DNA of 62,959 nt, the filler included. It is 7 parts of 7 records of this genome, joined end to end, with 100 filler letters (N's around TTAATTAATTAA, not from the genome) between each part and the next. Parts side by side here need not be neighbours in the genome. Positions count along the whole stretch, not along the records: positions 40,431 to 53,342 come from SRR7504441_474; 6 more parts are not named here. One strand, written 5' to 3'. Below, in pieces: positions 16,199 through 58,697 of this stretch. The notes under the pieces were generated by a model, which had not been told where the DNA came from, searched no databases, and saw only the letters and a program-made list of their open reading frames with translations. Each line of letters starts with the position of its first letter. Position 1 is the stretch's first letter. The position numbers were made by a program, and so were the translations under genes.

Positions 16199-16298
16199 NN
16201 NNNNNNNNNNNNNNNNNNNNNNNNNNNNNNNNNNNNNNNNNNTTAATTAATTAANNNNNNNNNNNNNNNNNNNNNNNNNNNNNNNNNNNNNNNNNNNN
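16199..16298. other. Artificial assembly linker (N-run + TTAATTAATTAA + N-run)
   Basis: 100-bp six-frame-stop spacer. Identical spacers at 23664-23763, 29957-30056, 34967-35066, 40331-40430 and 53343-53442. Confidence 0.97.
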
Positions 16299-23663: not shown

Positions 23664-23952
23664 NNNNNNNNNNNNNNNNNNNNNNNNNNNNNNNNNNNNN
23701 NNNNNNNTTAATTAATTAANNNNNNNNNNNNNNNNNNNNNNNNNNNNNNNNNNNNNNNNNNNNCAGGATCCCAGGCCGACGGTGCTCGCCCAGTTTGGTC
23801 GGGTGCGTGAACAACGGCGTCGAGTACACGCCCACCATTGTGACCGGCCCACAACGGCATCTTGTTACCGCGTGCCAGAGTCCGGGTGTCCGGCGTAGAT
23901 CTAGCTTACTGACTGACAAGTAATGGTTTATTATCTCTAGACTATGATTCTA

Positions 23953-26900: not shown

Positions 26901-29643
26901 GTACCACCGCTGCCCTCGCCTTTTCACGGACCCGCTGTATTGCCTCGCTGCTTAGCTCATATCCTGCTCCCATCCTCGCCACAGTGGACGGTGAGCGTGG
27001 AATATCAGCACTCTCGGTCTTAATTGCATCCAAGACTCCGGAAAACACGGCCAGTTTAGTGTGCACAAACCGAAAGGTCACAGTTGAGCCTCGAGGAAGA
27101 AGCATCGTGTCTAGCTTGAATATGCCTTCACCAGCAACAAGTCTGACATAAGAGGCTACAAGAGCATCTCGTTGCTGACTAGCAGCCATCATGTAGATGA
27201 CTGGGTCTTCATCGTCGTCGTCTTTGGACTCCTTGAGTACGTTATTTTTCCAGGTGTAAGCCTTGAGGAACATCAGGGGGAATGATGCGGTGTGTTCGTG
27301 TACGCGAGCCTCGGGATGAATGGCCACTGTGAAGTAATGTTTTCCTGAGCCTTTGGACACAGCGTGTAGTTCATCTAATTGGCCCCTGCACTGCAAATGG
27401 TTCGACCTATACGACTTTTCTTGTCCATCAAGCAGCACTTTGACCATCCCAGGATTCCATTTCGGATCTTCGACGATGGCGACTCGGCCATAGTGCGTAC
27501 TGCCTGGTTTCGCGATTTCAACCTCGTCACCTTTGGCAAAGCGATTTTTTTTGGCGCCTGCTTGGTCCGATCTGGCCCGCTTTTTGGGACATCCTTGCGA
27601 CTCGTAAATCGCACGCTTCTCGTCGAACGATCCACAATTGTCAATCACAACCGCTCCTGGAGAAGCGACAAGGCACTCGACCTGTCCAGACTGGCTAGTT
27701 GTGCCTGGCAAGATCACAATCGGAGCCGCAATGTGCATCTTGACTTTTATGTCGTCGGCTCGAGATATTGGCGGTCTTCCACGTATCACTATGTAATAGA
27801 GCCCAGCGTCGACCTCCTCTTCTGTATGCAGATCCAGCCTTAAATACCTGCCACCGCACAATCAAGCCGGCCGTCGACACCAAACTCACCTCAGATCAGC
27901 AACCAGATGCTCAGTCTGTAGCGTGGTGGGGGCGTCGGCGCGTATCTTAGTAATCGAGATGAGCGGCTTGAACGTGTCAGCCCTACGAGAACTTGTATCC
28001 GAGCCGTACACAGCAACGCGTGGAACCGCCAGATTCTTATCGAGAGGCGCCGGGCAGAGCTCGACGCTGTGGACCTCGAACGTATCGTCCAGGTCGAACA
28101 CCACCTCGGTGCAGGCCTCTCCACCGAGCGCGGCGCTCTTTCGACGGAACCAATAGTAAGACTCGGTCTGTTTGGTGTGTTCAACGTCTTGAGAATTCGG
28201 GTGAACGAACAGCGTGCGCTTGGAATCGGCCGCCACGGTGAGCTGTGTGGCGCTCAACGTCCTGTCTGGGATCCCATGCTGCTGGTGGAGCACGCCGGCA
28301 GGGATCTTGCCTACTGGCAGAAGCTGCTCCGTTGGCTTGGGCGGCGGAGTCTGGTCGGGGAGGGTTGAAGCCTTTGCCGGGGGTGGCAAGTTGGTGAGAA
28401 TGTATTTGAGCCCGGCCATGATCGGCTCAGTGAGCAGGAGCAGCTGCATCGGGACCACAACGTCCAGCTTCAGCTTGGACCCAAACAGCAGCCGATCTGC
28501 TGGGCTGAGCAGCTGGTTCCTGTGCAGCTCTATCAAACTCTCGCTGGCAGCGTCCTCACTAAACTGTCCAGCCTGGCCGTAGTTGTGGTTCAAATTGGTC
28601 GCAAAGATCTCGATCAAGTTTGACGTATGCCCGAGCGACTTAGCCAGCCCGAGCACCCGCGCAGCCTGCCCCGGCGGCCCGACACTCGCAGCTATGGACT
28701 TGAACCTCACCTGAAGAATCACCTTCGGGTCCAGCAGCAGGTGCTCAATCCACAGCCGGACGGTGGTGTCTTTCTTCTGCTCGCCGTCCTCCATCTCCAG
28801 GTCCCGCTCGATCACGATCTGCGGCGACAGTTGAGTCCACTGCTCCCAATCGTCCATCCCGCGCGCCTGGCCCTCGGCTCGAGACCACTTCTCGGGCCCG
28901 GCCTGCACGGTCAGCTTGGTCAGCTGGAGCGTCAGATCCAAGTGGTCCAGGTCAAACCGCTGCCCCCGGGCGCTGCTGTGCGACAGCTTGAGCTCCTCAA
29001 ACTTGAGCAGCACGGGACCGCGGAACGGCGCCCTCGACGCCGGGTCCGAATTCCCTTTCAGCGCGAGCTCAAACTCCTTGAATTCAACCACCACGTTCAT
29101 CAGCGCCTTGAGCAGGTAGTCCGTTGCATTTGAGGCCAGCGGTGTGAACAGCGCTGAGAACAGCCCGCCCTGTGACTCCTCGGCCGCCTCCGGCCCGGCT
29201 GGCTCCGCCGCTGGCTGGGGGGCTGCCCGGCGGGCCGGCTGCTCGCCGTACCGGTCGGTGCCTAGCGCCAGCCGGGCCCCGACCACCTCCAGGGTGCTCT
29301 GCTCCTCTCGGGCCAGTCGGAGGTTGATCTGCATTTTGTCTATCTTCTGGAAGGCCAGTTCGAACCCGGTGTATTCAAACAGCAGCGCGGCGAGCGCCGG
29401 CTGGAGCTGCAGGTCGCGGGCCGTCACGGTGAGCCCCCCGGGCACGTTCTGGTGCTCGATGACCGAGCCGGGGCCCGGGGTGATCCACTTTTGCAGCGCC
29501 TTGAGCAGCTGCTCGTCTATCGAGTCGATTGCTCCAACCGCCGCCAGCCCCTCGAGACCGCCGTGCAGCGTGTTCTTGCCGAACGCCATCGCCTGGTCCC
29601 GCAGCCATACGCCCCACGAGCGCTGGTCCGGCTGGCTGGCCAT
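23953..29643 (-). CDS. ~1880-aa protein: Chorein/VPS13-N-like N-terminus, beta-sandwich and KOW/SH3-like modules, multi-pass membrane C-terminus; one intron (27848-27889)
   Basis: A 42-nt GT-AG intron joins the 654-aa and 1302-aa ORFs (ADLR-YLRLDL). About 8 hydrophobic helices lie in 24400-25600. Confidence 0.75.
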
Positions 29644-30056
29644 CACCGCCCGGCGCTCACCAGTACCCTCATCTGCCTTGTGACAGCACGGTGGTGTCCG
29701 TTTTCTCGATTTTCGTGAATGGTGCTGACACTCATCACGGACCCTAGACTTTTTTTGAGACTCTACCGTACCAGGTAGGTACGTACTGTCGTACTGTACG
29801 TCAATTAAGCTTACACGTACGGCCCTTCGTGTGGATAGAAAATCAAACACAAGCGCTATTCAGTTCCCCAAATACTCGTATACAATGATACTAAAACGCG
29901 AGTTCCTAGGACACTACGCAGCCTTCTTCTTGCTCCGGTTGCGGCCCGGTCGGCTTNNNNNNNNNNNNNNNNNNNNNNNNNNNNNNNNNNNNNNNNNNNN
30001 TTAATTAATTAANNNNNNNNNNNNNNNNNNNNNNNNNNNNNNNNNNNNNNNNNNNN

Positions 30057-31041: not shown

Positions 31042-32391
31042 ATGGAGGCGCTGTACGACGAGATGGTCCGGCTGGGGATCGGCGAGCACAACACGGGCTT
31101 CATGGTGGCCGGGGTGGACTCGCCGGCCGCGCTGGCGGCGCTCACTGACGACCAGCTCTACGAGTTGGGGATAGAATCGGCCTCCGAGCGCCAGAGACTG
31201 CTGCGCGAGCTGGCCGCGCAAGCTCAGCCCGAGCAGCCGGCCCCGACCGCTAGCGAGCCTGTAGCTCCACCGCAGCTGGCCGAGGCCTCTGGGGGAGAGC
31301 TGCAGGCCGAGCTGGAAGTGCTGCGGGCCCAGCTGGCGGAGAGCGAGTCGGCGCGCGAACAACAGCAGCAGCAGCACAACGCCGAGCTCGAAGCGATCTG
31401 GCAGGAGGGCGAGGGCAAGCGGGTGTCCGTCCAAGCTGAGCTGGACAGCCTGCGAGTGGCGTCTGAGGCGCGGCGGCAGGAGGCGGCAGAGTGCGTGCAC
31501 AGGCTGGAGGTGGAGTTGGATCGGGAGCGCGAGGGCGGGCGGCAGGCGATCAGGAAGGAGTTGGACCAATTCATGATGCAGGCGGGCTGTCCGACCAGCA
31601 GGGCAGAACTCGGGCGCAGGTGAGTCGGCTGACGGAGGCCAATCAGGAGCTGGAGCAGCAGCTGGCCAGTGCGCAGAGTGAGGCGGCTGAGAAGCTGATG
31701 GCGAGCCGCCGGGCCTACCGTCGTGAGGGGAGGGGCAGGGGCTGGAGAGCGAGCTGGGCGAGCGTGAGCAGTATATCGAGCAGTTTCGGTCGGAGATGAA
31801 CGCTCAACTAGTTAGCTGCGTGAGTTGAGGCTAAACGGCTAGTGTGACCGGGTGCTGGCAGCGCAAGGCATCGCGAGAAGTCGAGGCGGAAGCACAGGGA
31901 CGGGTAGCGCAGCTTCAATTGGAGAAGACTGATGTCCAGAACAAGCTGCGAGCTGCAGAGGCCGAGCTTGTAGAGCTAGTAAAGGAATTCAATTTGCGGG
32001 CGTGCAGGATGAAAGAGGAGAAGAGCACAGGTGGGGCGCCGGCCAGCTGGCTCTGAGGGCTGTCGTAGCGTTCGATGAGGTGAAGAACCAGCTGTTGAGC
32101 GGGCTGGGCGACATGTGCAGGTTGGCTTGCGAGGATAGCGGTGATGCAGTCGATAGTTTAGAGGTCGAGGGGCTGATAGATCTAGTATTTGGCCCGTTGG
32201 TGCACCCTGTCGGCGACAAGCCCCTGGAGCAGGCCGGCCATCCGCTGCCCGGAGCGGATCCCGAGGAGCAGCTTGAGCTATCCCGGGAACCACAAGTCGA
32301 CAGCAGCTCCTCAACAAATAGAGGGATGGTCGACAAAATTCTAGGCTTTGCCGAATATCTCATGCCGCCAGCAGCGTCCAATAACGGGTAG
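31042..32391 (+). CDS. SAM-domain coiled-coil protein, spliced
   Basis: LAALTDDQLYELGIESASERQRLL (SAM), then heptad-rich exons. GC-AG intron at 31582-31619. Confidence 0.65.
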
Positions 32392-34945: not shown

Positions 34946-35066
34946 TTTCAAGTATAGCTTCAATAANNNNNNNNNNNNNNNNNNNNNNNNNNNNNNNNNN
35001 NNNNNNNNNNTTAATTAATTAANNNNNNNNNNNNNNNNNNNNNNNNNNNNNNNNNNNNNNNNNNNN

Positions 35067-40330: not shown

Positions 40331-40453
40331 NNNNNNNNNNNNNNNNNNNNNNNNNNNNNNNNNNNNNNNNNNNNTTAATTAATTAANNNNNNNNNNNNNN
40401 NNNNNNNNNNNNNNNNNNNNNNNNNNNNNNTGAGGCGCACGGCAGGGGCGGCG

Positions 40454-41747
40454 ATGGCGCCAGGTCGGGCTCTGGCACTGCTGTGTCTGGTGCACCGGCT
40501 GGCCTGGGCCGAGCACACCGACAACTGGGCCGTGCTGGTGGGCACCTCGCGCTTCTGGTTCAACTACCGGCACGTGGGCAACACGCTGAGCGTCTACCAC
40601 GGGATAAAGAGCCTGGGGATCCCGGACTCCAACATCGTGCTCATGCTGGCCGACGACGTCCCGTGCAACCCGCGCAACAGCCGACCGGCCCAGGTGTCGG
40701 CCGACGAGGTGCCACCGCCGGCCGACCAGCGGGCTGAATCTGGGCCAGGCCGGGACAGACATTTACGGGACCGACGTGGAGGTCGAGTGCCCCCTACCCG
40801 TAGAACCTGTGGCCCAGGGCTGCCCGGGGCTGAGCTGGCGCCTGGCTGACAGCGCCGGACAGGTGGACTACCGGGGCGAGGACGTGACGGTCGAGAACTT
40901 TATCCGGGTGCTGACAGGCGATCCGGCCAGCACGATCTGCGGGGCTGAGTTGGACACAGGCCGGCACCAGCCGGGCACTCCGCCGACCAAGCGGCTGCTC
41001 TCCCACGACAAGAGTGCGTGGCTCGTGCTCTGACCGGTCTGGAGCAAGCAGGGCTGCAGGCAACGTGCTCGTCTACCTCTCGGGGCACGGCGGGGACGAG
41101 TTTCTCAAGTTCCAGGCAGCGTGGCGCTGTGCGCGAGCTGAGATGCTCGGGAGACAGGACTGTGAGGAGATTGGCGCACAGGATTTTGCAGATGCTGTAG
41201 CCCAAATGCACAGCCAACACAGGCGAGTTGCCTGACCGGAGCCATCGAGCGCAGTGCCAGGTACCATAAGCTGCTGTTCATCACCGACACGTGCCAAGCT
41301 GCGACTCTGAACACCTACTTTTATTCACCCAACGTGTATGCGATTGGCAGCAGTCGCAAGGACGAGAACTCGTACTCGGTGCCGAGCTCGGGCTGTGAGA
41401 TCTGAGCGGGGCCTCAGCATGGGTTCACGGCCAACCTCGGGATTACCATCCTTGACCGGTTCTCGTTCATGCTATCTCGGTACCTCAATTCGCTCTCGCG
41501 TGATTCGACAGCATCTCTCAGAGACCTGGTGAGCCGCCAGGCGCTCATCCCGAGAGCAACGGGCCCGCAGGTGCAGCACTTTGAGCGAGAGTATGACATG
41601 CGCAAGTCACACATAGGCTTCTCGTTCACCCCCGGGATTGCAAGTGCCGATCAGGTTCTAGTGACTGATTTCTTTGGGAGTGTTTTGCAAGTTTCATTGC
41701 CAAAGCACGTACGAAGCCTTAGTTTTGCCGATCAAGTTAAATCTTGA
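40454..41747 (+). CDS. PIGK: GPI transamidase catalytic subunit GPI8/PIG-K (peptidase C13); 8 introns
   Basis: [56 protein letters not shown] and DFFGSV, all reconstructed in frame. Confidence 0.95.
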
Positions 41748-42194
41748 ATCGTTTGTGTACTGTAGCCAGGCTATCAAGGGCCATGTAGACTGTCTTGTCC
41801 TTCCAGTGTGCCCCGAGCACTCGCGCTGCCATGAGGACTTGCAGTGCTTCCATGTGCTGTACAATGTGTACATGTGCTGTGAGCTTGGCCCCTTCTTTCG
41901 CTGCACTGCTTGCCACATCTCATTTGTCCACGGCATCTTGTAGAAGTATCTATCGTCGTGTTCACCCATGCCCCATTCGGAGCCTGCATCTCCCACCATA
42001 TTGTGAGCACCGACCAAGCAACCCCACGAGGCGCTCCTCGCCTCGGTACGCTCCACGGTCTCAAGTGCGAGTATTGCTTTATCAGTTCACGTAAGAATTG
42101 AAGTACGCGGTACTCTCGTAAAGACGTTTCAAGATTAGATTTAAATATCTAAGATTTATCCCCATTGTAGGGATTCATTTGTACCCAACATTAT

Positions 42195-44112
42195 TCATCT
42201 ATGGGGCTGCTTGACGTTCTTTCTAGGGAGCAAGCGGACTGGTGTGCTATGGTACGAAAACTCGTCACAAAGCGCCGTGATAATCCTGTCGGAACACAAG
42301 CAACCGGATGAAAACAGCTTACAAAGTGGCTGATTGCACCGGCGGCGCTGAGCTGCTGGCAGCTTAGTGCCGGGCATATTGTAGAATAGCGTGAAAGTGG
42401 GTGGTCTGGTGCTAGTTTGAGTGATGAACTTAAGGTTGAGCCCGGCTGGCCATCTCATGGTCGGGTTGCTCTGTATCATCTGCCATATGGTCACAGCACA
42501 CTGTCAGCACGCTGCCACCTGGAGCCACTGATTCAACAAGGATGTGCCAACTCGAAGGGACCATGCTGCGTGGGCTGACTGAATCGCGCGCAGCAGCTTG
42601 TCCATTCCCTGCCGCCGCAGCTCAGCAACCTCCTGCCCGCCCACAGGCCTGGCGCTCCAGTGCGGAAATTGCAACCACGCCCGGAGCACGCAGCTGTGCC
42701 AGCTCGCGAGTCAGCCTACCCGCAATATGCTTTTCAACCTAACGGGGCCTCAGGCATGCCCCACAGCTCACTCGCCTCCTCGGCTCGCCCGGACCAGTCT
42801 GGGCACACCGCTCAGGCTGGCAAGAGAGCCGGCTGACCTGCAGGCAGCGAGTCGAGCTTGTTGACAGCGAGCACGATCGCCTTGCCCGCGTCCACCACCT
42901 GGCGAGCCACCGAGAGGTCCTTGCGTGTGAGCGGCATGTTGGCGTCGATCACTAGCACCACCACCTGCATCCCGATCGCAGCCACCCGCGAGCCCTAGGC
43001 ACGTCAGACATGCTGACTGCCCGCTCGGTATCCCAACGCGATAGCAGAGAGAGTCTATCCGTGCCTACTGTCCGGTGCGGAAGCAGCCCTGCGCACCAAG
43101 CCTGCTGAGCCGGCATCCGGCCAGGCTACCGGCGGTGTCAAGCAGTCTCGCGAATTGACCACCTGCCAGGGCTGAGTGCGCGGCGGGCGGTGGGTGGCAC
43201 CTCCGAGGTCCCAGCGCGTGGCTACGTGCTCCCTGGTCAGTCCCGGCTTCTCGCCTGCCCCGGCCGCTCAGCGGAGCTTGCTGTGCTCCCGTCTTACCCA
43301 CAAGCATCCTCTGCTGACCGCAAATGGTGTTGACCAGCGTAGACTTGCCCACGTTGGGCACTCCGACCACCGACACCACTAGCTCAGGCTCGGCCCCGCT
43401 CTCGGCCTGTCCCGGCTGGCGCCGCGCGCACAGGGCTGGCCGCACCGGTTCATCAGACAGGTGCGGCAGCAAGGCCCGCCCAAGGTCCTGGATCCCCTCA
43501 TTGTGCTCGGCCGACACCCGGACAGCGCCCCCGAACCCGAGCCGGGCCGCCTCCGCCGCCACGTCCTCGCCCACATCGTTCTCGCACTTGGTGGCCACCA
43601 CCAGCACCGGCAGGCCCCGGCGGATCGGCCGGAGCCACGAGGCGATCCGCTCGTCCTCGGCTGTCAGCCCGACCCGGCTGCCCCCGGCTGAGCGGCGGAG
43701 CTGGGACGCCGGCTACCCGTCGACGACCAGCAGGGTGAGCTCGCTGGAGGCGACCACTTTGGAGGTCAACTCTCCGAGCATCTGACCGACCTCGTCCGCC
43801 CCGCGCCTCGGCGCCTGCACCCGCCTCGCCGGCCTGCAGGCAGCCCAGCACCTGCAGTCCGGCGGTATCGGTCACTGTGAACCGTGTGCCGAACAGCTCA
43901 CACTGACCATCCTGCCAGTCGCTGGTGACCCCGGGGGTGTCGTGCACCAACGCCTGCCGCTTGCCCACCAGCCTATTGAACAGGGTAGACTGCCCCCCCG
44001 TCCGGCCCGGAGCGCGGCTGCGCACCTTGCCCGTGTTGGGCCGGCCCACCAGCGTCACCGTGCAGCACCACCGGCTCCCAAGCAGCCGCAGCTGCCGCCG
44101 GCCCACCAGCAT
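42195..44112 (-). CDS. der: Organellar Der/EngA double GTPase; 13 introns
   Basis: GRPNTGKSTLFNRL, DTPGVT, DTAG, a second [20 protein letters not shown] and KH-like KFITQ...RPPTF. Arg-rich N-terminal transit-like peptide. Confidence 0.93.
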
Positions 44113-44145
44113 GAGCCCCGACCAAACAGCGACAGCGCCGGCCGG

Positions 44146-44168
44146 CCGTTCAACGGTTGAGAATCTCG
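44146..44168. promoter_or_regulatory. CCGTTCAACGG near-palindrome plus GAGAATCTCG in the der/methyltransferase bidirectional promoter
   Basis: Centred in the 87-bp gap between ATGs 44112(-) and 44200(+). Confidence 0.7.
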
Positions 44169-44199
44169 ATCATGCCAGTGCCCTTTCGAGGCTGCGCAG

Positions 44200-45159
44200 A
44201 TGATCGGTGCATTTCTCCTGCTGGGCTGCCTCGTGGCCGGGCTGGTGCTCCTCCGGGCAGTGCACCGGAACCTGCCTGCCTTGCGGCTCTGGCTGTCTGT
44301 GGCCGGGGACGACCAGAGATTCTACAAACAGCTCTTCCTTCCCGGGTGGCGCGCCCTCGTATCGCAGTCCGGCTGGATGAACCTGGGCTACTGGGGCGCA
44401 CAGGACGGCGACGACCCCGCCGCCACTAGCTACGCCGAGGCCTGTGACCGCCTGGCTCTCAAGCTGGCCGCCGCCGGGATCGGGCCGCGGCAGTCGGGAC
44501 CTCTGGAGGTGTTGGACGTGGGCTGCGGCTGCGGCAATTCGACGCTCCTGGTCGCGCAGAAGTACCCGGAGCTGAAGCGAATCGTGGGCATAAACTTGTC
44601 GGCCGAGCAGGTCAGCCGGGCCAACAACAGACTCGCTGCGCTGGATGCTGACGACGCCCGGATCTCATTTCAGGTGGCAAGTGCCACAGAGATGCCATTT
44701 GCCGATGCGAGTTTCGACGTGGTGATGGCCCTCGAGTGCGCCTTTCATTTCCAGACTCGGGAGGCCTTCTTCTTGGAAGCACGCCGCATATTGCGCCCAG
44801 GTGGCAGATTGGCGCTTGCTGACATCGTCACAAGAAATGGGGTGCCTCTCATTTCGCCTCCTACTCTGATGCAACGACTGATGCTCGCACCAGCGGTCGG
44901 TAATACTGAGAACATGGCATCGTACCGTCGGCGCATGGAAAATGACGGCTTCAGTTCAGTCTGTGTAGACCGAGTGACTGACGAAACCATTATACCATTT
45001 TGTGAACATTTTGCCGGCCTGCACAAACTGGAACACCTACCACGTGAAACTGACGACGACGACACCTCAATTGAGGCATTCAAATTATACATGATTGTAA
45101 CGAACTTCTTAATGCGGGCCGGAGGAGAGTACATCATTGCTAGAGGCTCCGTGCCGTGA
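44200..45159 (+). CDS. SAM-dependent methyltransferase (sterol/tocopherol C-methyltransferase-like) with an N-terminal anchor
   Basis: MNLGYW, VLDVGCGCG, MPFADASFD, ECAFHF and LRPGGRL. Intronless. Confidence 0.88.
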   Translation: MIGAFLLLGCLVAGLVLLRAVHRNLPALRLWLSVAGDDQRFYKQLFLPGWRALVSQSGWMNLGYWGAQDGDDPAATSYAEACDRLALKLAAAGIGPRQSGPLEVLDVGCGCGNSTLLVAQKYPELKRIVGINLSAEQVSRANNRLAALDADDARISFQVASATEMPFADASFDVVMALECAFHFQTREAFFLEARRILRPGGRLALADIVTRNGVPLISPPTLMQRLMLAPAVGNTENMASYRRRMENDGFSSVCVDRVTDETIIPFCEHFAGLHKLEHLPRETDDDDTSIEAFKLYMIVTNFLMRAGGEYIIARGSVP

Positions 45160-45570
45160 TCATGAGTCAAGCTATTGAGATCAATGAGCACTCTAGATAG
45201 CTTGAGACGACATTTGCCGTGCTAGCGGTCGCTGGCGTCTGTCGCTGCATTTTGCTGCTTCCACGTACACTCTATCCAAAGTTGATACTAAGTACAATCA
45301 GTCAGTTGGCCTGAATTAACCGCATCAAACTTTAGTTTGAACGATCACTAAAGGAATATAGAGGGTCCGGACGGAAGCCCGAAGCCAGAGATCTATATAT
45401 ATGTGTCAGATAATCATTATGATAATCATAATGTAATAATTGTAATTAGGTACCGATAGCCGACGTAGCCGAGAAGTGTGCATGCACGATCAATCGAGTT
45501 TATTGCACACAAACACCCATATTAGCTCGACAAGCATAGTCGATCACCGTCGTATCTTGGCAGGTGTGCG

Positions 45571-46887
45571 TTACAGGAAATATTCTGGAGCTGGCTTTTT
45601 TGCAGGAACGCCGCGCACCTGCACGCAAACTAAGGGAAGCTCGAGATTGATGGTGCACCTCCTGCGGAGCAGCATCAAAGCACTTGAACTGGCGCTCGAG
45701 ATGCTCGTCCAGCTCTAAAATCGCGGCTACATTGCCACACCTGTATTTGGCCAGTCAGAGAGGAGCGGTGTACGAGTCCCCACCGGTAGCAGTAATTCGG
45801 GGCAGACCACACTGTGAAAAGCGTCTCGTTGAACATCGGCTTGTAACCCTCCATCACCAGCTGGTGCGCCCGACAGATTGTGTCAATTTTGTTTGTGTGC
45901 TCGAATTGTGAGACCACATCTCCCCCAAACAAGTAGCCCGCACCGCGAGGACTCAACCCCCAGCCATCTATTTCCTCTGGATCAGACCACAGCAAGTCGC
46001 ACATTGCGCCATCGTGCGGAACCTGTCGCGCGTGTCAGATGCCGGAGGTGCCTGTGGCCACCTCTTGTTTGCGGTCAATCACCCTGATTTGATCCAGGGT
46101 GCTGATAGAAGGGGACAGCCCTCCGTGCACACAGAAGATCCGGTCCTCTATGAGGGCCGACAAGCTGCCGTCCACAACCACGCTCAGCCCAGCCGCTGCT
46201 GGCACCCGCCGCCGACCGACCTCAAGTAGTCGAAAATGTCTGTACAGAACCGCCACACGTTGACTGAGCCGTACTTGCGCAGGCACTCGTCGTAAAAGCC
46301 GTAAACCTGTATCAGCCGTGGCTGAGCCAGGGGGGGTGGTGGGGCAGCGCCTGGGTGATCTGCCTGCTCTCGTGATTGCCTCGAATCAGCGTGATCCTAT
46401 CTGGGTACCGCACCTTGCACCGCACTAGTGAGCAGCCCTGCGACGGGCTGAGCCGCACCTTGAGCGCGAGGAGCAGGAGGAAGGTCTCCACACTGTAGAA
46501 CCCGCGGTCGACAAAGTCTCCCATGAACAGGTAGTTTGTCTGAGGGCACTCGCCGCCCACCTGCACGGCCACTCGCGCTGGGGCCGGCTCGGTCCGCCCA
46601 CCTTGAACAGCTCCTTCAGGTCGTAGAACTGCCCGTGGATATCCCCACACACCTGCACCGCGCGGCTGCTCAGCGGCCCTGTCGGACGGCGGGAGCTGAC
46701 CGTCACAGGGGCGTGCACCCGCTGAACGTTGGACTCCTCCAGCAGTATTTCGCAGGCTTTGTTGCATAGCGCTTTCACCTCGGCCTGCAAACGCCGCGGT
46801 CATGGTGCCGGGTTCTGGGAGGGCGGGCACCTCCTTGATGTAGTTGCAGTTCCGCAAGTCCTCGATTTGTCTGTCGAGGTCCGACAT
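45571..46887 (-). CDS. PPP4C: Ser/Thr protein phosphatase 4 catalytic subunit; 9 introns (39-56 nt)
   Basis: [66 protein letters not shown] and C-terminal EYFL*. Confidence 0.97.
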
Positions 46888-46952
46888 GATTGCCTGCTGC
46901 TACCCACTTTGCCTTCGGCGACCCGCTTCGAGCAAAATGCAAAGACGCTTGT

Positions 46953-46975
46953 CCGTTGCTGCTGCTTCGCCGTTA
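46953..46975. promoter_or_regulatory. Tandem CCGTTG / CCGTTA in the PP4/ankyrin bidirectional promoter
   Basis: Lies between ATGs 46887(-) and 46999(+). The same CCGTTG-then-CCGTTA layout occurs at 23408-23424. Confidence 0.7.
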
Positions 46976-46998
46976 CTCCGGAGTGTGGTGGCAGCGGG

Positions 46999-49900
46999 AT
47001 GGCCGAGGCTGCTGGCGACGCGGCGCCCGGTGCACCCGGGCCGCCCCGCGCGGAGTCGGTCGTTCCCGAGGCGCCGCCGGCTGGGTCGGGTCAGTTCATC
47101 CCGCGCTCGTCGTACGATTACATCGAGTCGCTGGTGATCAACCACCTGCTGGCCGGCATGACGGTCCACTGCCCGGTGAGCCGCCCGCCCGTCCCCTGGG
47201 CTGACCGTGGGCAGATGGACTCGGGCCGCAGCCCGATCGAGACGGTGTTCGATGCGGCGGTGGACGGGCACCTCGACGCGCCGGAGTGCCTGCAGCTGGT
47301 GGGCTGGCTGCGGGAGCAGCAGTGCAAGATCCCACGGGACGAGGACGGGGTGATGCTGCTCAACAGGGTGAGCAGCCGGGCAGGGCGCGCGCCAGCCTTG
47401 GTAGGTGCTCCGGTCTGGGGCGATGCAGCTGCCGGACAAAGTGGCCATTGGGCGGTATTTGGTCCAGAAGGGCGGCTGCTCCCGCGACCAGCAGGACCAG
47501 CAGACTCGGTGCCCCGCCCGCGGCCCGGCGGCCGATGTGCGGGGCAGGGAGGACGCGCTATTTGCGGCGGTGGACGACCCCGGGGCAGCCAGCGCGGTGG
47601 TGCGGATGCTGCTCGAGAGCCAGCCGGGCGAGCCTGGAGAGGTCGGCAAGAAGAGCACAAACAGCAGCGGACACACGGTGCTGACCAAATTAGTCACCCA
47701 GCTGAGCCACACCTCCGACCCGGAGACCATCGAATCGATCCAGGGCGCGATGCTCATGCTGTGCAGGGAGGCCGAAATGGAGACTGGCCCGATCGTGCCC
47801 TGCCTGGTGCAGGCGGCCGGACACAAGGTGACTGTGTGCACCCAGATGCTCGACTTCTTCAAAAAGCGACTGGGCGATGTGGTTGATTTCAACGCCACTC
47901 TCGGCGAGATGCACCAGACTGCAGTGCACCTAGCAGCAGCTGAGGGGCAGCACAGCATCATCAGGGCACTGCTGCAGTCGGACGCAGATGTGGACGTCGC
48001 CGACGGTCAGGACGACACACCGTTGATTCTGGCCTGCAGAGGCGGCCACATTAAGACGATTGCGGTGCTTCTGGCGGCCAATGCCAACCCAAACACCAGG
48101 AGCACAGTGGATGGCACGCCGCTCCTGGCTGCAGTGACCAGCGGCCAGGTTGCTGTGGTGGAAGAACTCTTCAGGAACAACCAGTGCGTCGACCTGGATC
48201 CAGGTGCAGTGGATGCAGACGCCGCGATTGATAAAGCCTACTGGCCAATTGGCATCAACGAGCCAGATGCAGATGGATGCACGGCCCTCGATCTGGTGAT
48301 CCAAGCTGAGCAGTCCGGCTCACCCCCCCCCGAGAATGCCGAAATGTGCAAGCTGCTGCTGGCGCACGATGCCAAGACTGCCAATGACGGCGGGGCGCTA
48401 CACGATGTCATCAAGATGGTTTGCAACTCAGACCATTTGTCGCACACAGATCGGATGCGGAATGCTGCGGTTGTTGTGATGCTGCTCGATGCGAATGATG
48501 GTACCAACCGACTGATCGATCCCAACAACAAGGTGGACGGTGTCTCGCCGCTCGATCTGCTGGTATGGAAGCCATTTGGTAGCGTGATGCAGGCATTGCT
48601 GCGCGCGGGTGCGGTGCTCGAAGACGGGCTGCTTCAGCGAATGCTTCGCAGCATGGCCAGCGAGGACTGTCCCCAGGAGAAATTTGATCGGCTTCTCGAG
48701 TCAATAGCTATTCTGAGCGAAGGAGAGGGCGCGCCAGTGGGAGAGCAGAGGGTGCCGTGCACCAAGTCGGCCGATGGCGAACCCACGCTGCTCCTGCTGG
48801 CAATCAAGCTCAGGCTCAAGGAAGTTGTGGACATTCTGGTCACCAACGGTGTCGATGTGAATGACGGCACTCCAGTGTTCGCTACTCTCAAGGCCTTCAG
48901 CAAGGCTAGGGCTGCAGATGATCGCAAATCAGCAGCGGAGTTGCAATCAATCGTATCCCTGCTTTTTGAGTCAGGTGAGCTGGACTGCAATTGTCCTGCT
49001 GCTGATGAGATGAACGAAGAACGTACTCTGCTCGAATTCGTTGTATCAAGTGAAATCGGTAGAGACGATTTCTTGGATCTTGTCCTGGGCCAGATTGGTG
49101 ATACCAATCCTCTCAGTGCTGACCCCAACCGGCCGTCTGACAACCTGGTGCTCTCACAGCTGATGAGCGAGCTGCACCAATCTGAAGTTCTCAATCCGGA
49201 GCGGGTGCACTTTATCTTGGAGACTGTGAACAAGCTGATCCATCACGGGGCGCGTGTGGACATCCGAATCGAAGGAACTGATGGCAGAGGCACCACTCCT
49301 CTCAAAATTGCTATTGGCCTCTCAGAGTGGGAGCTAGCCAGGACCATGATCCAAGTTGGCAATGCGGATATCAATTTCTTAAACCCTTTCTATGAAAATG
49401 TGCTGCTGCCTTATTGCACTGAAGGCTTGCAACAAAAGGCATATGATGAACTTGAAGCCATGCTTGACGTTTTCTTTATGAATGGTGCTGATGAGACTAC
49501 AGTTGATGTGGGGATTCCGTCTTCATTAGACCTGGCCTGGAAGAGCGGAAAGTTTGGTCTCGCGCACAAGCTTGTCAAGAAAGGTGCTGATGTGAACCGA
49601 ACTCAGCCTCTGTTCCGTGTGATGGAGGCGATGATTGAGGCCCGGAAAGAGAGAAACGCAACAAAGGTTCAATCGCTCTCCAAATTTCTCGATTTTCTGA
49701 TTAAAAATGGAGCTTCAGCAAATGTTATTGATCCAGTGACAGAAAAAACAGCGCTTGGCTATGCAATCGACATACGAGACATGTCTCTGATTGAAATGTT
49801 GCTTGATAAGGCTGACGCCGACCCGCAAGAACCAGGACTGATTGCGGCTTTGATGAAGTCCTTAGCAAACTATGTGATCGCTTTCTGTCATGGACAGACC

Positions 49901-52900
49901 TTGAGGCCTGACCAAGATGAGGACATTGCTGGAACCAACAGTTACAGGTTTTACGAAAAGGTTGCTATGCTGCTAATCAGCGTAGGAGCATCAATTCTTC
50001 CAGAAGAAGAGACTGGCGAACCCGATGGGAGTGTCAATGGATCAGAAGTCGATGATGATATTCATGGATCAGAAATCGATGTACAAGTAGGTGAAGAAGC
50101 GGCTGATGAAGAAGCCGATGAAGAAGCCGACGAAGAACCTGTTCAAAAGGGCAAAAAGAAGCCATCATGGTGTAATGCACAAACTGCAGAGGCGTTTTGG
50201 GTCAAGCGTGACAGCTGGAGTGTGTTAGACTATGCGCTTCTTGTTACTAGTGAAACAGTTGCGAGCGAGTGCATTGAAAAAATGGAAAACGGTTCCACTC
50301 TAGGTCACATTATGTCACGCGTCTTACATGATCTGGAAGAGCTGCGTAACCGGAAGGAGCTGCTTAAGCAGAAGGAGCAACGGCGACTGGAGGGTGAGGA
50401 ACTGGAGGGTCAAGAAGATGAGGAAGATGAAGACATATTCTCAGTTGCGTGTAAGCTGAAATACGGACCACTAGTTACGAGTGAATTTCTGGAGACTATC
50501 CTTCGAGCGGTGGTTAAAAAGGGATCCATGGAGCACATGCCTTCAGTTGATGGCAGAACACCATTTGAGCGCTCACTATGTCTGAATGATGAAGACCTGT
50601 GCCAGCTTTTCATTGATCACGGTGCAGACATTACCACTCACAATCCTCAAATTCATTTGCTAGAGGAATACTACAAGAGCTCAGACTATGCGGAATACCA
50701 CGCTCCTTCATCAAAACGGAACAGGTTTGTGTTCAAAATGTCCGAAGTTTTGCTGCAAGCCAAGCCAGAGCTTTGCAACTACAAGACAAAGGACGGAATT
50801 ACCAATTTAGAGATGGCAATTATGCATGCTGATACAAAAACAGCTGAGACTCTAGTGAACAATGGGGCAGATTGCAACGAATCCCAACCACTGGGCCTGA
50901 CTTTGTCGATGCTCCATTCAGGAGTTCGAAAAGTTGGAGGTAAGCCAAGGGACTTTTTGCGTCTCATAGACCTGCTGATTGAGAAAGATGCAAACGTGGA
51001 CCAAGCCAGGCCAGGCAAGGAAAAACCATTGCAATATGCTATCTGGTTGAAGAAGCTTCCATTGGCACAAAGGCTGTTGCAGAAAGGTGCACAGGTTAAT
51101 GAGGCACCATTCCTGCCAATCAGCATGCAGCATTTGTGTGATGCAAAAAATTTGCCAGAAGAGGAAGTAGAGGAGGAGGAAGAATTCCACGGTGCGCTGG
51201 TATCCATGCTGCTGCACAACAAAGCAGATGTTGAGCAAGTGGGTCCTCGTGGCATGACAGCTCTGCAAATCGCACTTGAGGCTCACAACATGGAGTATAT
51301 CGACCAGCTCCTTGAAAGAAATGCTAGCTACAATCCAGATCTTTTGCTAGATGTTCTGGAAGATCTGAGGGCCAAGTACGACCCAAGAAACTTTTCCGGT
51401 GCAGAGATCGAAGAACGGCTGGCATCACTGCTGGTGCGGCACAGAGCCGATGTCAACATATGTAAAGACACTGTTGAGCCACTTGAATTGGCTGTTGAAG
51501 CACTGCACGTCGACATGGTACAGAGCTTAGTTCGACACGGCGCTCATTTGCGCGATGAAAAAGCAGGGAACCCGCTATTTGCTATTTTCAATCCACTACA
51601 TCATGCATTGTCGCTCGACAATCAAGCTATTGTTCGCAAATGTAGTGTGATTGCAGATTATCTCATTGAGAAGGGAGCGAATCCCCATTGCTTGCACAAT
51701 GTTCTAGACATGTGCTTTGAGGCTAAGGACAGTGACCAGCTCATTGTTGGAATGCTCACTTTCTTCGGGCAGAAGGGCGCGCGCTTGAATGAGGATATTG
51801 GTGACGACGGTCCTTTGCTGATGCGCTGTGCACGACTAGGTCTCGTGCTGTCTGTTGATGCACTAATTGAGCTTGGGGCTCCTGTGAGGCAAAAGCGGAA
51901 ATCTGACGAGAGCACTGCTGTGGCTGTGGCTATTGCAAATAACCGAACGCAATGTGCTGCGATTCTTCTGGAGGCTGGAGCAGACATCAAAGAACTCAAG
52001 GGTGAGGGCGGAGTTCCCATGGTCCATCAAGCCGTCCTTCATAAAGACGTCATGCTATTGAAACTCATGGCAAAATCCAGCGGTACCTCGCTCAAGAAAT
52101 TGACCGACCAGTTCGATAGAAGTGTCCTGCATTATGTGCTCTGCCCTGAAGTTTCTCAAAACAAAGGCGATTCGGCCGAAATGTTTGATGCGATTCAAAG
52201 CTTGGCAAATCCTTGTGCTCAAGACTGCCAAGGAGACACCCCAATTCATACAGTAGCTGCGATCCATTCCTTGGAGACCATTGCGCAGATCTTGCAGATG
52301 AAAGGTCAGTTATTGCGTTGCTGCTGCACAATTCTGACTGTGACGCAGGTGCTGACATTACAAAAGTGAACTCTCGCGGATGGACCAGCTTAGATGTGGC
52401 TGCAATGCGTGGCAATCCTGATGTCTTCCGGGTATAACCTGACAATATAGAGCAACCTGTCGTTTCACATCAGTTTATAGTGTATTTCTAATGTCCTTGT
52501 CTGACTGGGGTTTAGTTCCAACGCCTGGAATCACTTACTGATCTGTTTGGGCCAGGCGTTCCTTGAGAGCACTCCTAAGACACGCGCTCTACCTGCCGAG
52601 ACTGCAGCGATATGTGCTGGTTCCAGTTTTATGAAGGGTATGGAGCTGTGTGCTGCGTGGGGGGTCGAATCTTGGGATATGGCATTGTGGAAGGCTGCCT
52701 TCATGGGACGCTTGGATGCTATGGTCTTTGCCATTCAGCAGGTAAAACCATAGGGTAACACAGGTACTGAAATATGGCAGGGAGCTGATGTGAACCAACG
52801 AGATGCACACCGCCAGACCATCCTGCATTGTCTCCCAGGATGGCACAGTCGTAATCCGTCCTATGTGACAGCGCTTGCCAAACCATTGCTGGAAAAAAGC

Positions 52901-53342
52901 GCCAATACGCTGCTTCCTGATGCGAATGGGTCGACTGCACTACACTCAGCGTGCTTATTTCAGAATGCCGCCTTGGCAAGGCTTCTGATGGATTATGGTT
53001 CCTCCTCGACCGCTGAGACACAAAATGGAATGAAACCCTTGAACGCATCTACCATTGCTGGGGCAGAAGAACTTGCAGAGGCCCTGGATGTACCACTACA
53101 CGAGATTCCTGAAGACAAACGCAAATTCAGAGACCTGGAGGTGAACATCGGATGGGGTCTTCTCACTCAAAGGCCAAATTACCGTCCTGAGCGTTTTGAA
53201 GGTATAGAGTGGCGACGCATCCGCGAGTTGAAATCTTCTTCTAAAGCTCTGAGCAGCAACCCGGATGGTCCACTGTTGGCTGAGAACATCAGGCTGGCTA
53301 ACGTCCATGTTGATTCCTTTACATGCAGCTTGATGCAAGGCT
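46999..53342 (+). CDS. Giant (~2000 aa) ankyrin-repeat protein, 3' truncated by a linker
   Basis: Many TPL/TAL..A...G ankyrin repeats and acidic linkers. Two introns near the 5' end (39 and 37 nt), a ~4.9-kb central exon, and further introns near 52300-52780. Confidence 0.9.
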
Positions 53343-53585
53343 NNNNNNNNNNNNNNNNNNNNNNNNNNNNNNNNNNNNNNNNNNNNTTAATTAATTAANN
53401 NNNNNNNNNNNNNNNNNNNNNNNNNNNNNNNNNNNNNNNNNNCCCCCCCCGTCACCCGCGCGACCAGGCCGGGCCGCACTTGGTTGGTGTCCGGTACAGC
53501 AGGGACATCCTTCAGATTCCGTTGACGACCCGAACACTTACACGAAGGCCGGCGGAGTGGAGAGTGATTAGGCGCCGCGGGGAGG

Positions 53586-54804
53586 ATGGCGAACCGGACA
53601 GACCCGGCGGCGGCGACCGTAAAGGGGGGCAACCCGCAGAATTTGATTGAGAAGATCCTGCGCCAGCGGATCTACGGCTGCATGTACTGGAAGGAGCATT
53701 GCTTTGGGCTGACCGCCGAGACGATGGTGGACAAAGCCACCGAGCTGGAAGCGTACGGTGGGGCCACCGGCGGGCTGCGGAAGCCGACGGCGTTCCTGTG
53801 CCTGGTGCTCAAGATGCTGCAGATCCAGCCTGAGAGGGAGATCGTGCTGGAGTTGATCCACAACGAGGAGTACAAGTATGTGCGGGCCCTGGGGGCCTTC
53901 TACCTCAGGCTGGTGCGTGCGGCCGAGCAAGCCCTGGGCCGACCCGGTGGGGCAGATCGGCACTGCCAAGGACGTGTACACCACGCTCGAGCCATTGTAC
54001 AACGACTTCCGCAAGATCAGGTTCCGTAAGGCCGACGGGGGGTACGAGATCCGGCACATGGATCAGTTCATTCAGGAGATCCTCACCTCGGACTACGTGT
54101 GCGACGTGACCTTGCCGTTCCTGCTCGGTCGACAGGCGATGGAGAACACAGGCCAGCTCAAGCCCCGGATGAGTGCCATCGAGGGTGAGATCGATGACCT
54201 AGCTGAGGAGCTCAGAGAGCAGCAAAGGGCGCTTGAGCCGGAGGCCGCGGCCGAGGAGCCGGAAGCGCCAGCTGCCGCTCCCCCGTCGGAGGAGGCCGAC
54301 AAGAGCTCGCTGCGTGCGGGCGCGAGGCAGGAGCGGCAGGCAGAGCGGCGAAAACACCCTAGTCTTGAGCGGAGCCCTGCGCGCTCCAACAGAGGCAGGT
54401 GAAGGGGGGGTGGCGACCAGCTTGGTGAGCATGGGGTGCAGGGACAGCCGGGGAGAACAGCGGGAACGGGGCAGGGACAGGCGAAGGAGCCGGAGCCGGA
54501 GCCGGAGCCGCCGCAGGAGTCGCAGCCGCAGGAGTCGCAGCCGAGACCGCCGGCGGGATCGGTGACGTCCCGGCCGGGCCGAGGGGTGAGGGGCGGCGGC
54601 AGGTCACGGAGCCGGAGTAGGGGGCGGGACTCCAAGAGGGAGCGGAAGAAGAAGCAGGAGAAGAAAGCGAAGAAGGAGACCAAGCAGAAGACAGCAGAGG
54701 AGCTGGAGATCGAGGAGGCGCAGGCGCTGCGAGCTTCGCTCGGGCTCAAGCCGCTCAAACTGGACACGAAGAGCAATATTAAGTATGTCACAAAGAAGGA
54801 TTAG
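53586..54804 (+). CDS. PRPF38A: Pre-mRNA splicing factor PRP38 with an RS-like region and a C-terminal HIND motif
   Basis: MANRTD, NPQNLIEKI, YWKEHCFGLTAE, FLCLVLKMLQIQP and KYVRALGAFYLRL. A 43-nt intron; C-terminal LEIEEAQALRASLGLKPLK. Confidence 0.95.
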
Positions 54805-57218: not shown

Positions 57219-58697
57219 ATGCAGCCGAGCTGGGAGGCGACGCTCAGCTCGATCATCCAGACCACCGAGCACAACCTCAACCAATGCGGCGCCAAGACGC
57301 TCGGCCAGCCGGGGCTGCTTCAGAACAAAGAGAACGCCCACCCGAACCGGCCGCACTCCCCGCTCCAGACCGTGCTGACCCTAGACGCGCCCGGGAGGGA
57401 CGACGTGGCTCAGCTGCGGTCACTGGTCAACCGACTCGACGGCCGGCTCTCGTCGGAGATCGATCGGATCGGGGGCGAGTCCCAGCGGGGTTTGGACGCG
57501 GTAAGAGACGAGCTGCGGGCTCAGGCGATCCATCAGGACTTGTGGGAGTCCTCCGAGCGGCGGCTGCTGATGCTCATCGACAAGGTCCACGCGATTGAGA
57601 GCCGGTCGATTGGCCTTCCCCCGTTGGCGGACCAACCGCTGGCTTCGGTCAGCGGGTCCGGGGCCGATCCGCTCAAACTAGCCCAGCTGGAGCGGGCGGT
57701 GCTGGAGCTGCAGCCGATGAGCCAGCTGCCCGGACGGATGGGCCAGATCGAGGCCCGACTGAACGCGATGCAGTCCCGTCCGGCGGGGCAGGGCGGCGAG
57801 GCGGATGGGGCGCGGGCTGCGGAGATCGCGAGGCTAGAAGATAAGATGTTGACCATCCAGCGGGATATTGACGACGACGGGCTGCTCAACCAGGTGTCGC
57901 TGGTGAAGCACGAGGTGGAGGCGTACAAAATGGAGGTCGGAGAAATGGAAGAGCGACTTGCCGATCTGGAGTCGCAGCACGAGCGGGGCCGGAGCGCGCA
58001 GCAGGGCCGGCTGGACGAGCTGGAGCGGGCGGCCGGCCGGCGGGCCGACGGGGATGAACCGTTGCTCCACGCTCAGGTGCTTTAGGGCCGTTTGATGGGG
58101 GGTGAGTGGGTGGGCAGTTGGCCGATTTGATGGGCGTGGTGCATGCGCACGCTACGAGGATCCAGGAACAAGATGGTATGCTGCAGCAGCTGCGCGCCGA
58201 GTACGAGCGCGACGTGGCCTCGCTCACGGCCAAGGCACGGCGCCGGCTGAGCGGCTGAGGTGACTGGGCCGGTTCAGGTGGATTCGCCTCTGGGCTCTCC
58301 GAGTGAGCTGCCTCAGCAGAATGCAGAGGCCTTGGACCAAGTGGCGCGCAAACTGCAGCTGACCAAGCAGAATGTGACTGGCGACCGGGCTCAGCTGCAG
58401 CAGTGTTGCGATATGGTGGTGAAGCTAGGGAACAAATCAATCGATGAGAGCCAGAAGTTGGACCAGCAGACTGAGCTGCTTACAATGATGCAGGCGAGGC
58501 TGTCCGAGCTATCCGCGGAGCTACAAGCCGAGCGGCGGGAGCGGCTGACGCTGGAGCGGGAGGTAAAGTGGTGGATTGAGCGGCAGAAGGGTGTGCCTCT
58601 GGACGAAGTTGATGACCCCGAGCCCAACTCCGAGCTGTCGGAGCATCACTCACCCACGTTCCAGCTTTCAGACCTGAGCGTTCCCGATACTCCGTGA
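57219..58697 (+). CDS. Coiled-coil protein; 2 introns (one GC-AG, 58235-58277)
   Basis: Heptad-rich exons joined in frame by short introns. Confidence 0.7.

Follow-up and report, generated by a model that had tools for sequence, protein, structure and literature searches.

An apparent excess of probably ordinary GC-AG introns among the very short introns of three conserved genes from a GC-rich marine eukaryote

Results

GC-AG introns in the PP4, PIG-K and Der genes

We analyzed a window of 62,959 bases, which comprises seven contig pieces separated by N44-TTAATTAATTAA-N44 linkers, and found that introns beginning with GC and ending with AG make up an unusually large share of the tiny introns in three genes, which encode a PIG-K/GPI8-like GPI-anchor transamidase, a Der/EngA-like double GTPase, and the catalytic subunit of PP4. 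The interpretation that we favor, with a probability of roughly 0.78, is that these are ordinary U2-type GC-AG introns that are unusually frequent, at some 10–20% of very short introns with 70% GC content, in a GC-rich marine eukaryote. Six GC..AG segments, whose coordinates and sequences are exactly those given in a preliminary description made from the DNA alone, are absent from the mature messages. One of them is skipped in RNA from the same organism, and the removal of the other five is predicted by gapless alignment to homologs. At each of the six junctions, only GC at intron positions +1 and +2 fits. As we discuss below, several lines of evidence support this assignment.

First, RNA directly bridges a GC-AG intron in the PP4 gene. 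Public runs that contained 31-mers of the window were marine metatranscriptomes only (eight runs from three studies, with 7–11% of the sampled words in each), and contigs of four runs, X1 and X3 from one study and X6 and X7 from two others, were compared with positions 40431–53342. Fourteen joints were listed, 13 of which were intron-sized, with skips of 38–56 nucleotides (nt); 12 of these 13 were GT-AG on the coding strand and one was GC-AG. The remaining joint, which skips 476 bases between CA..CG ends and has a side of 24 bases, was put aside as chimeric or foreign. The GC-AG joint, from 46305 to 46350, skips 44 bases and can slide by four bases, but of the five possible cuts only cut +1 (46307–46350, minus strand) yields a recognized pair, GC..AG, and the other four yield none. 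Two contigs of X1 and a single contig each of X3 and X6 carry this joint, which did not appear in X7 (three of four runs and two of three studies). The contigs that carry it match the flanks flawlessly, over up to 49 flanking bases, and PP4 contigs of several hundred bases with 0–1 mismatches adjoin it. No GT occurs within or beside 46307–46350, and retention of its 44 bases would shift the reading frame. The spliced PP4 model, of 304 residues, aligns without gaps to PP4 homologs.

Second, spliced alignment to homologous proteins selects the same GC-AG intron and predicts five more. For this purpose we wrote a protein-to-genome aligner that permits GT donors only, GT and GC donors, or all 16 dinucleotides as donors. 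In a control with the homolog P0017, it recovered all nine RNA-verified PP4 introns exactly. The PP4 GC intron was picked with three of three homologs, including when all 16 donors were allowed, and GT-only alignments to these homologs lost 100–103 score units and mis-placed a neighboring intron. For PIG-K, 19 distant homologs of 336–424 residues were picked among the 150 matches listed; the GC introns starting at 40918, 41116, and 41223 were chosen in 16, 16, and 17 of the 19 runs, respectively, with GT and GC donors, and in 16, 16, and 13 of the 19 with all 16 donors. A closer relative, L001, is a 1,330-base contig from a metagenome collection, found with an 80-residue query from the first exon, that carries an uninterrupted open reading frame (ORF) of 313 residues and shows 87% identity to the query in the portion of exon 1 that it matches (residues 19–80). 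With all 16 donors allowed, alignment to L001 returned exactly five GT and three GC introns, with no decoy, and was gapless at every junction. Solved structures bear on two of these introns: in Protein Data Bank alignments, the segment 40918–40959 appears as an exact 14-residue insert relative to the human GPI transamidase subunit (PIGK), and 41116–41157 adds exactly 14 residues, between FLKFQ and D, relative to 9ub7_C, a second solved GPI transamidase. For Der, two transcript-derived relatives, P0147 and P0148, match the query exon with 69% and 63% identity, respectively, and yield 12 introns each. Both Der GC introns, 42739–42775 and 42609–42648, were picked in four of four runs that allowed GC, including those with all 16 donors, and the alignments were gapless across both GC junctions. 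No RNA contig from the four runs covered the three PIG-K or the two Der GC introns, which speaks neither for nor against their splicing.

Might some of these five introns be mis-placed, such that a nearby GT donor is used or the two 42-nt segments are kept as coding sequence? In-frame, stop-free GT alternatives exist for 40918–40959, 41116–41157, 41223–41260, and 42609–42648, the lengths of 40918–40959 and 41116–41157 are multiples of three without a stop codon, and the aligner was misled at times in weakly conserved stretches. Every GT alternative, however, removes or alters residues that are conserved in close relatives. For example, donor and acceptor at 40908–40949 would alter two residues conserved in L001, and those at 41227–41270 would remove two. 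Restricting donors to GT lowered alignment scores by 55 for L001, by 17–53 for the 19 PIG-K homologs, and by 59 and 76 for the two Der relatives. Moreover, neither L001 nor the solved transamidases contain the PIG-K inserts, the disputed segments resemble introns in length, carry a branch-like motif of the CTGAG type, and end in CAG, and both Der segments would shift the frame if retained. Mis-placement thus appears very unlikely to us.

Frequency of GC donors

GC donors account for 6 of 29 curated introns (21%; exact 95% interval 8–40%), with three of eight in PIG-K, two of 11 in Der, and one of nine in PP4. The curated set consists of these introns, from which the 3′ end of the Der gene and an ambiguous Der intron at 43407–43445 were left out, plus the intron at 52305–52348. 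At a rate of 1%, six or more GC donors among 29 introns would be expected with a probability of 3.9e-7, a result that bears out the initial claim of a GC-AG share far above the usual ~1%. The same description had counted 6 of 30 (PIG-K 8, Der 13, PP4 9); its six GC introns stand, the curated total here is 29, and 12 introns were found in Der. Its additional candidates at 2034–2117, 31582–31619, and 58235–58277 were unconfirmed, as each has an in-frame, stop-free GT-AG alternative and lies in poorly conserved sequence; at 2034–2117, a plain GT donor is located six bases downstream.

Intron anatomy and donor context

The introns range from 36 to 81 nt in length, with a median of 41 nt and 27 of the 29 falling within 36–48 nt, and their mean GC content is 70%; measured in 2-kb steps across the window, GC content varies between 48% and 67%, with ~62–65% in the intron-rich genes. 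All curated introns end in AG, which is preceded by C in 26 of 28. The following exon begins with G in 22 of 28 cases and with GT in 16 of 28, and both junctions resemble AG/GT (a slash marks the junction). No pyrimidine tract precedes the 3′ splice site, where the sequence is G-rich, and a branch-like CTGAC, CTGAG, or CTCAG motif was seen by eye ~10–25 bases before the 3′ end of most introns. GT donors are weak beyond +3, with G at +3 in 14 of 22 and a mixture of bases at +4 to +6.

The six GC donors are GCGATC, GCAGCG, GCGAGT, GCCTGT, GCGAGT, and GCGCTG, two of six thus being GCGAGT. The exon ends in CAG at five of six GC introns vs three of 23 GT introns (one-sided Fisher p=0.0025) and in AG at six of six vs 14 of 23 (p=0.08). 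Outside +1 and +2, GC donors match CAG/GTRAGT at 5.17 of seven positions on average and GT donors at 3.52 of seven (Mann-Whitney p=0.0019), a comparison qualified by the fact that this consensus is the general eukaryotic one and may not fit the U1 of this organism. These differences contradict in part the initial description of the GC-donor context as degenerate. They are the pattern reported for U2-type GC-AG introns, in which the mismatch of C at +2 within the U1 helix is compensated by the other donor positions, exonic as well as intronic (PMC1557818, in excerpt). The better fit of the GC donors to the U1 consensus favors ordinary U1 pairing over altered small nuclear RNAs (snRNAs).

The alternative drawn from the same introns is that 5′ splice-site recognition itself has changed, through U1, U6, or U5 snRNA or through proteins of the U1-C or Prp8 type, such that +2 is nearly neutral and introns are defined by exonic AG/G and length. 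The premise of relaxed recognition holds in part: the intron side is weak at all 5′ splice sites, exonic AG is present at all six GC introns, and lengths are tightly clustered (27 of 29). Even GT introns have a poor intron-side consensus, with only +3 G favored (14 of 22), and the G-rich sequence before the 3′ splice site lacks a pyrimidine tract. In addition, Iwata and Gotoh left base modifications or U1 small nuclear ribonucleoprotein (snRNP) proteins open as explanations in Aureococcus and M. pusilla (PMC3033335, in excerpt). By contrast, GC donors fit the canonical U1 register significantly better than GT donors do, as an unchanged U1 predicts, and Aureococcus and M. pusilla are rich in GC-AG introns but have a canonical U1 5′ end (PMC3033335, in excerpt). 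We therefore regard changed recognition as unlikely, and the step from these introns to altered snRNAs is unsupported by positive evidence. Rfam reported no RNA family in the window, either at the gathering threshold or at E<=1, and thus no snRNA there.

U12-type introns form another class with GC-AG ends, whose first six bases are GCATCC and whose U12-type branch site lies at a fixed distance (PMC1557818, in excerpt). None of the six donors is GCATCC, and no TCCTTAAC-like branch was seen on reading the printed sequences.

Points that weigh against a high frequency of GC-AG introns

Several observations weigh against our interpretation or the frequency that it implies. RNA supports one of the six GC introns, the other five lying outside contig cover, and in the RNA-only sample one of 13 introns is GC-AG, which could put the true rate closer to 8% than to 20%. 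Because the three genes were chosen in the preliminary description, the 21% figure may be inflated by an enriched sample. The homology method also called false donors: with P0014, a GC donor at 45595–45622 and a CG donor in PP4, both contradicted by RNA; a CC donor at 40712–40748 in 13 of 19 PIG-K runs; and GG and AC donors in Der. The method can err in this way where conservation is weak; all six focal junctions lie within well-conserved sequence. Introns were also predicted ab initio across the window with a 3-periodic Markov coding model and neutral junction weights, decoy donors being permitted, but no more than 18 of the 28 known introns were retrieved, and this census lacked the power to extend the sample. 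This census was dropped because decoy dinucleotides were called about as often as GC (at a penalty of −6: GT 30, GC 13, CG 12, CT 12, CC 11, CA 11).

Finally, the bases at donor +2 were read from the assembly, and a T/C polymorphism or an assembly error may be present at any single site. An extension of this point is that GC at +1/+2 is a general artefact of metagenome assembly or a strain polymorphism and that the expressed alleles carry GT, as might be suspected from the resemblance of seven contig pieces with N linkers to a binned assembly and from the invisibility of intron bases in spliced RNA. Six independent T-to-C errors would be needed, however, all exactly at donor +2, and the surrounding sequence matches RNA contigs with 0–1 differences over hundreds of bases. 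We consider this explanation extremely improbable.

Gene models and observations on individual genes

The coordinates of the three genes and of their introns are collected in Table 1.

Table 1. Genes and introns modeled in the window, with the evidence for each (coordinates in the window; +/−, coding strand).
Feature	Coordinates	Strand	Evidence and remarks
PIG-K/GPI8-like GPI-anchor transamidase gene	40454-41747	+	8 introns (5 GT, 3 GC); PDB matches; open frame when spliced
GT-AG intron, 40 nt	40709-40748	+	L001 spliced alignment; distant homologs alone ambiguous
GT-AG intron, 81 nt, sole long outlier	40782-40862	+	Homologs, L001
GC-AG intron, 42 nt, in frame, stop-free	40918-40959	+	Human PIGK insert; 16/19 homologs; L001
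GT-AG intron, 46 nt	41014-41059	+	Homologs, L001
GC-AG intron, 42 nt, in frame, stop-free	41116-41157	+	9ub7_C insert; 16/19 homologs; L001
GC-AG intron, 38 nt, donor GCGAGT	41223-41260	+	17/19 homologs (GT+GC), 13/19 (all 16 donors); L001
GT-AG intron, 39 nt	41379-41417	+	Homologs, L001
GT-AG intron, 42 nt	41529-41570	+	RNA joint in X7; L001
Der/EngA-like double GTPase gene	about 42195-44112	−	12 introns found (10 GT, 2 GC); alignment to P0147, P0148
GT-AG intron, 39 nt	42480-42518	−	Spliced alignment
GC-AG intron, 40 nt, frame shift if kept	42609-42648	−	P0147, P0148, all 16 donors
GC-AG intron, 37 nt, donor GCGAGT, frame shift if kept	42739-42775	−	P0147, P0148, all 16 donors
GT-AG intron, 39 nt	42799-42837	−	Spliced alignment
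GT-AG intron, 38 nt	42965-43002	−	RNA joint in X6; spliced alignment
GT-AG intron, 41 nt	43089-43129	−	RNA joint in X6; spliced alignment
GT-AG intron, 38 nt	43163-43200	−	Spliced alignment
GT-AG intron, 43 nt	43255-43297	−	Spliced alignment; with P0147 and all 16 donors, GG decoy 8 nt off favored by 3 score units
GT-AG intron, boundary uncertain (alternative 43416-43445)	43407-43445	−	Two homologs disagree; excluded from statistics
GT-AG intron, 39 nt	43678-43716	−	Spliced alignment
GT-AG intron, 37 nt, boundary less certain (alternative 43825-43875)	43815-43851	−	Spliced alignment
GT-AG intron, 36 nt	43990-44025	−	Spliced alignment
PP4 catalytic subunit gene	45571-46887	−	9 introns (8 GT, 1 GC); 304-residue product; all 9 RNA-bridged
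GT-AG intron, 40 nt	45619-45658	−	RNA joint
GT-AG intron, 43 nt	45741-45783	−	RNA joint, 4/4 runs
GT-AG intron, 39 nt	46023-46061	−	RNA joint, 4/4 runs
GT-AG intron, 56 nt	46165-46220	−	RNA joint, 4/4 runs
GC-AG intron, 44 nt, RNA-verified	46307-46350	−	RNA joint in X1, X3, X6; homology
GT-AG intron, 45 nt, 10-nt direct repeat across both junctions	46414-46458	−	RNA joint
GT-AG intron, 41 nt, 10-nt direct repeat across both junctions	46561-46601	−	RNA joint
GT-AG intron, 48 nt	46653-46700	−	RNA joint
GT-AG intron, 46 nt	46785-46830	−	RNA joint
GT-AG intron, 44 nt, 3′ end of long ankyrin-repeat ORF	52305-52348	+	RNA joint in X1

Two further features of the PP4 gene were observed. In close relatives, the PP4 transcript fragments P0008 and P0132 begin with non-homologous residues that end in Q and are followed by VYGFYDEC, and these starts appear to lie inside the relatives' counterpart of the GC-AG intron at 46307–46350. 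P0007, a transcript from a relative, has the same kind of start at a GT intron, and the start of P0131 consists of adapter-like residues. The starts of P0008, P0132, and P0007 hint at intron retention in the relatives. Separately, in the introns at 46414–46458 and 46561–46601, which are not alike in sequence, the end of the exon and the start of the intron recur, over 10 nt, as the end of the intron and the start of the next exon. When donors and acceptors of 30 introns were cross-paired, repeats of at least 10 nt had a probability of 0.0023, such that 0.07 would be expected and two were seen. Such repeats could have been left behind when introns were gained through duplication or break repair.

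Apart from the two eukaryotic transcript relatives, organism-named matches of the Der protein are almost all to bacterial Der (e.g. Pigmentiphaga, 36–38% identity), which suggests that the gene may be organelle-targeted or bacterial-derived and may have acquired its 12 introns since. The closest relatives of four proteins of the window are environmental or transcriptome entries. Taxonomic hints from two atlas look-ups are weak and disagree, one pointing to Chlorophyta and the other to Bacillariophyta.

The remainder of the window

The six linkers occupy positions 16199–16298, 23664–23763, 29957–30056, 34967–35066, 40331–40430, and 53343–53442, and, judging by them, the window looks like a binned assembly. 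The linkers join separate contigs, and gene order across them is therefore no evidence of synteny. Intron density is very uneven, with uninterrupted ORFs of 1302, 657, 1654, 461, and 332 residues beside genes with 8–12 tiny introns. Uninterrupted ORFs occupy 23953–29859 (−), 47405–52369 (+), 296–1678 (−), and 44161–45159 (+), some of them in stretches with 48–55% GC, and the interval between Der and PP4 contains a methyltransferase-like ORF that is free of introns. No Pfam family was found for the ORFs of 1302 and 657 residues. A gene for a pre-mRNA splicing factor of the PRP38 family is located at 53586–54800 (+), with a PF03371 match (E=3.7e-14) on the ORF at 53857–54399 and an RS-rich tail; read from the frames, it contains at least one candidate GT-AG intron, at about 53913–55, with the donor GTGCGT.

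Discussion

The introns described here resemble the U2-type GC-AG introns of model eukaryotes, as presented in the excerpted literature, in their GC..AG ends, in a donor that is nearer to the U1 consensus, including on the exon side, and in the lack of U12 motifs. They differ in frequency, which is ~20-fold higher in our sample of 6 of 29 than the 0.37–0.87% of introns reported for five model eukaryote species (PMC1557818, in excerpt), and in their length of 36–48 nt, 70% GC content, and lack of a pyrimidine tract.

Parallels are also found in GC-rich marine algae, whose published genomes have about 64–70% GC and for which the authors tie abundant GC-AG introns to high G+C content. GC-AG introns make up 39.6% of introns in Aureococcus, 22.2% in Micromonas pusilla CCMP1545, and 7.7% in Chlorella, compared to 1.3% overall, and the U1 pairing sequence equals the consensus in Aureococcus, in M. 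pusilla, and in the reference Micromonas RCC299, which has 2.7% GC-AG introns (PMC3033335, in excerpt). Other reported values are 56–65% for Emiliania huxleyi (PMC4028052, in excerpt), 14–17% for Aureococcus anophagefferens, and 14% for Pelagomonas calceolata (bioRxiv 10.1101/2024.10.30.620910, in excerpt). Like these algae, the source of the window is a marine protist in which GC-AG introns may reach 10% or more, judged from the 6/29 sample, and which has AG acceptors only among the curated introns; E. huxleyi acceptors are ~98% AG in the excerpted source. Unlike those of the pelagophytes, for which the excerpted source gives an average intron of 103–177 bp, the introns here have a median of 41 nt.

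Two kinds of introns in Mamiellophyceae also bear comparison (PMC3879977, in excerpt). The IE-A1 introner elements of Micromonas pusilla, a GC-rich picoeukaryote, have 53% GC donors with the sequence AG/GYGCGT and resemble the introns here in that exonic AG is followed by GC in some cases and by GT in others. Introners, however, are repeated families, whereas the introns here are much shorter and show no family: in an all-against-all BLASTN search of the 29 introns, the best pairwise matches were 11–21 nt at E>=0.01, and the window gave two short non-self matches. Introns of the Mamiellophyceae outlier chromosome (BOC1) are likewise very short (<75 nt) and numerous per gene, and they occur in conserved and expressed genes. 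A BOC1 origin was our first guess and was ruled out because BOC1 is AT-rich, compared to 70% GC here. The excerpted source describes BOC1 introns as having <43% GC, no branch motif, mostly GT-AG ends, and some TG or CG acceptors, whereas the introns here carry branch-like motifs of the CTSAS type and always end in AG.

How might so many GC donors arise? In the model that we favor, a GC-biased base composition would drive T at +2 towards C, and C at +2 would be acceptable as long as the other donor positions, chiefly exonic CAG and sometimes GAGT at +3 to +6, still pair well with canonical U1. The tight distribution of intron lengths is consistent with recognition of both ends as a pair across the intron, and a special snRNA would be unnecessary. 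In a different and, to us, doubtful model, donor +2 would be nearly neutral, introns would be set by exonic CAG/G, a CTSAS-type branch, and length, and the cause would lie in a U1 snRNP protein, in snRNA modification, or in changes of U6 or Prp8. GC donors might then be prone to retention, because P0008 and P0132 start inside the intron that precedes VYGF.

If ordinary GC-AG introns are as frequent as we propose, then gene finders and aligners that insist on GT would mis-model ~1 in 5 to 10 introns in this organism, leaving conserved genes with shifted frames or with small errors that keep the frame, as happened in our GT-only alignments, a problem of relevance for the annotation of marine eukaryotic assemblies. 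A lineage with very short introns would join the GC-rich protists that have many GC-AG introns, which is a known pattern and calls for no new mechanism. The present case supports the view that base composition, together with the usual compensation by the rest of the donor, is a sufficient explanation of abundant GC-AG introns.

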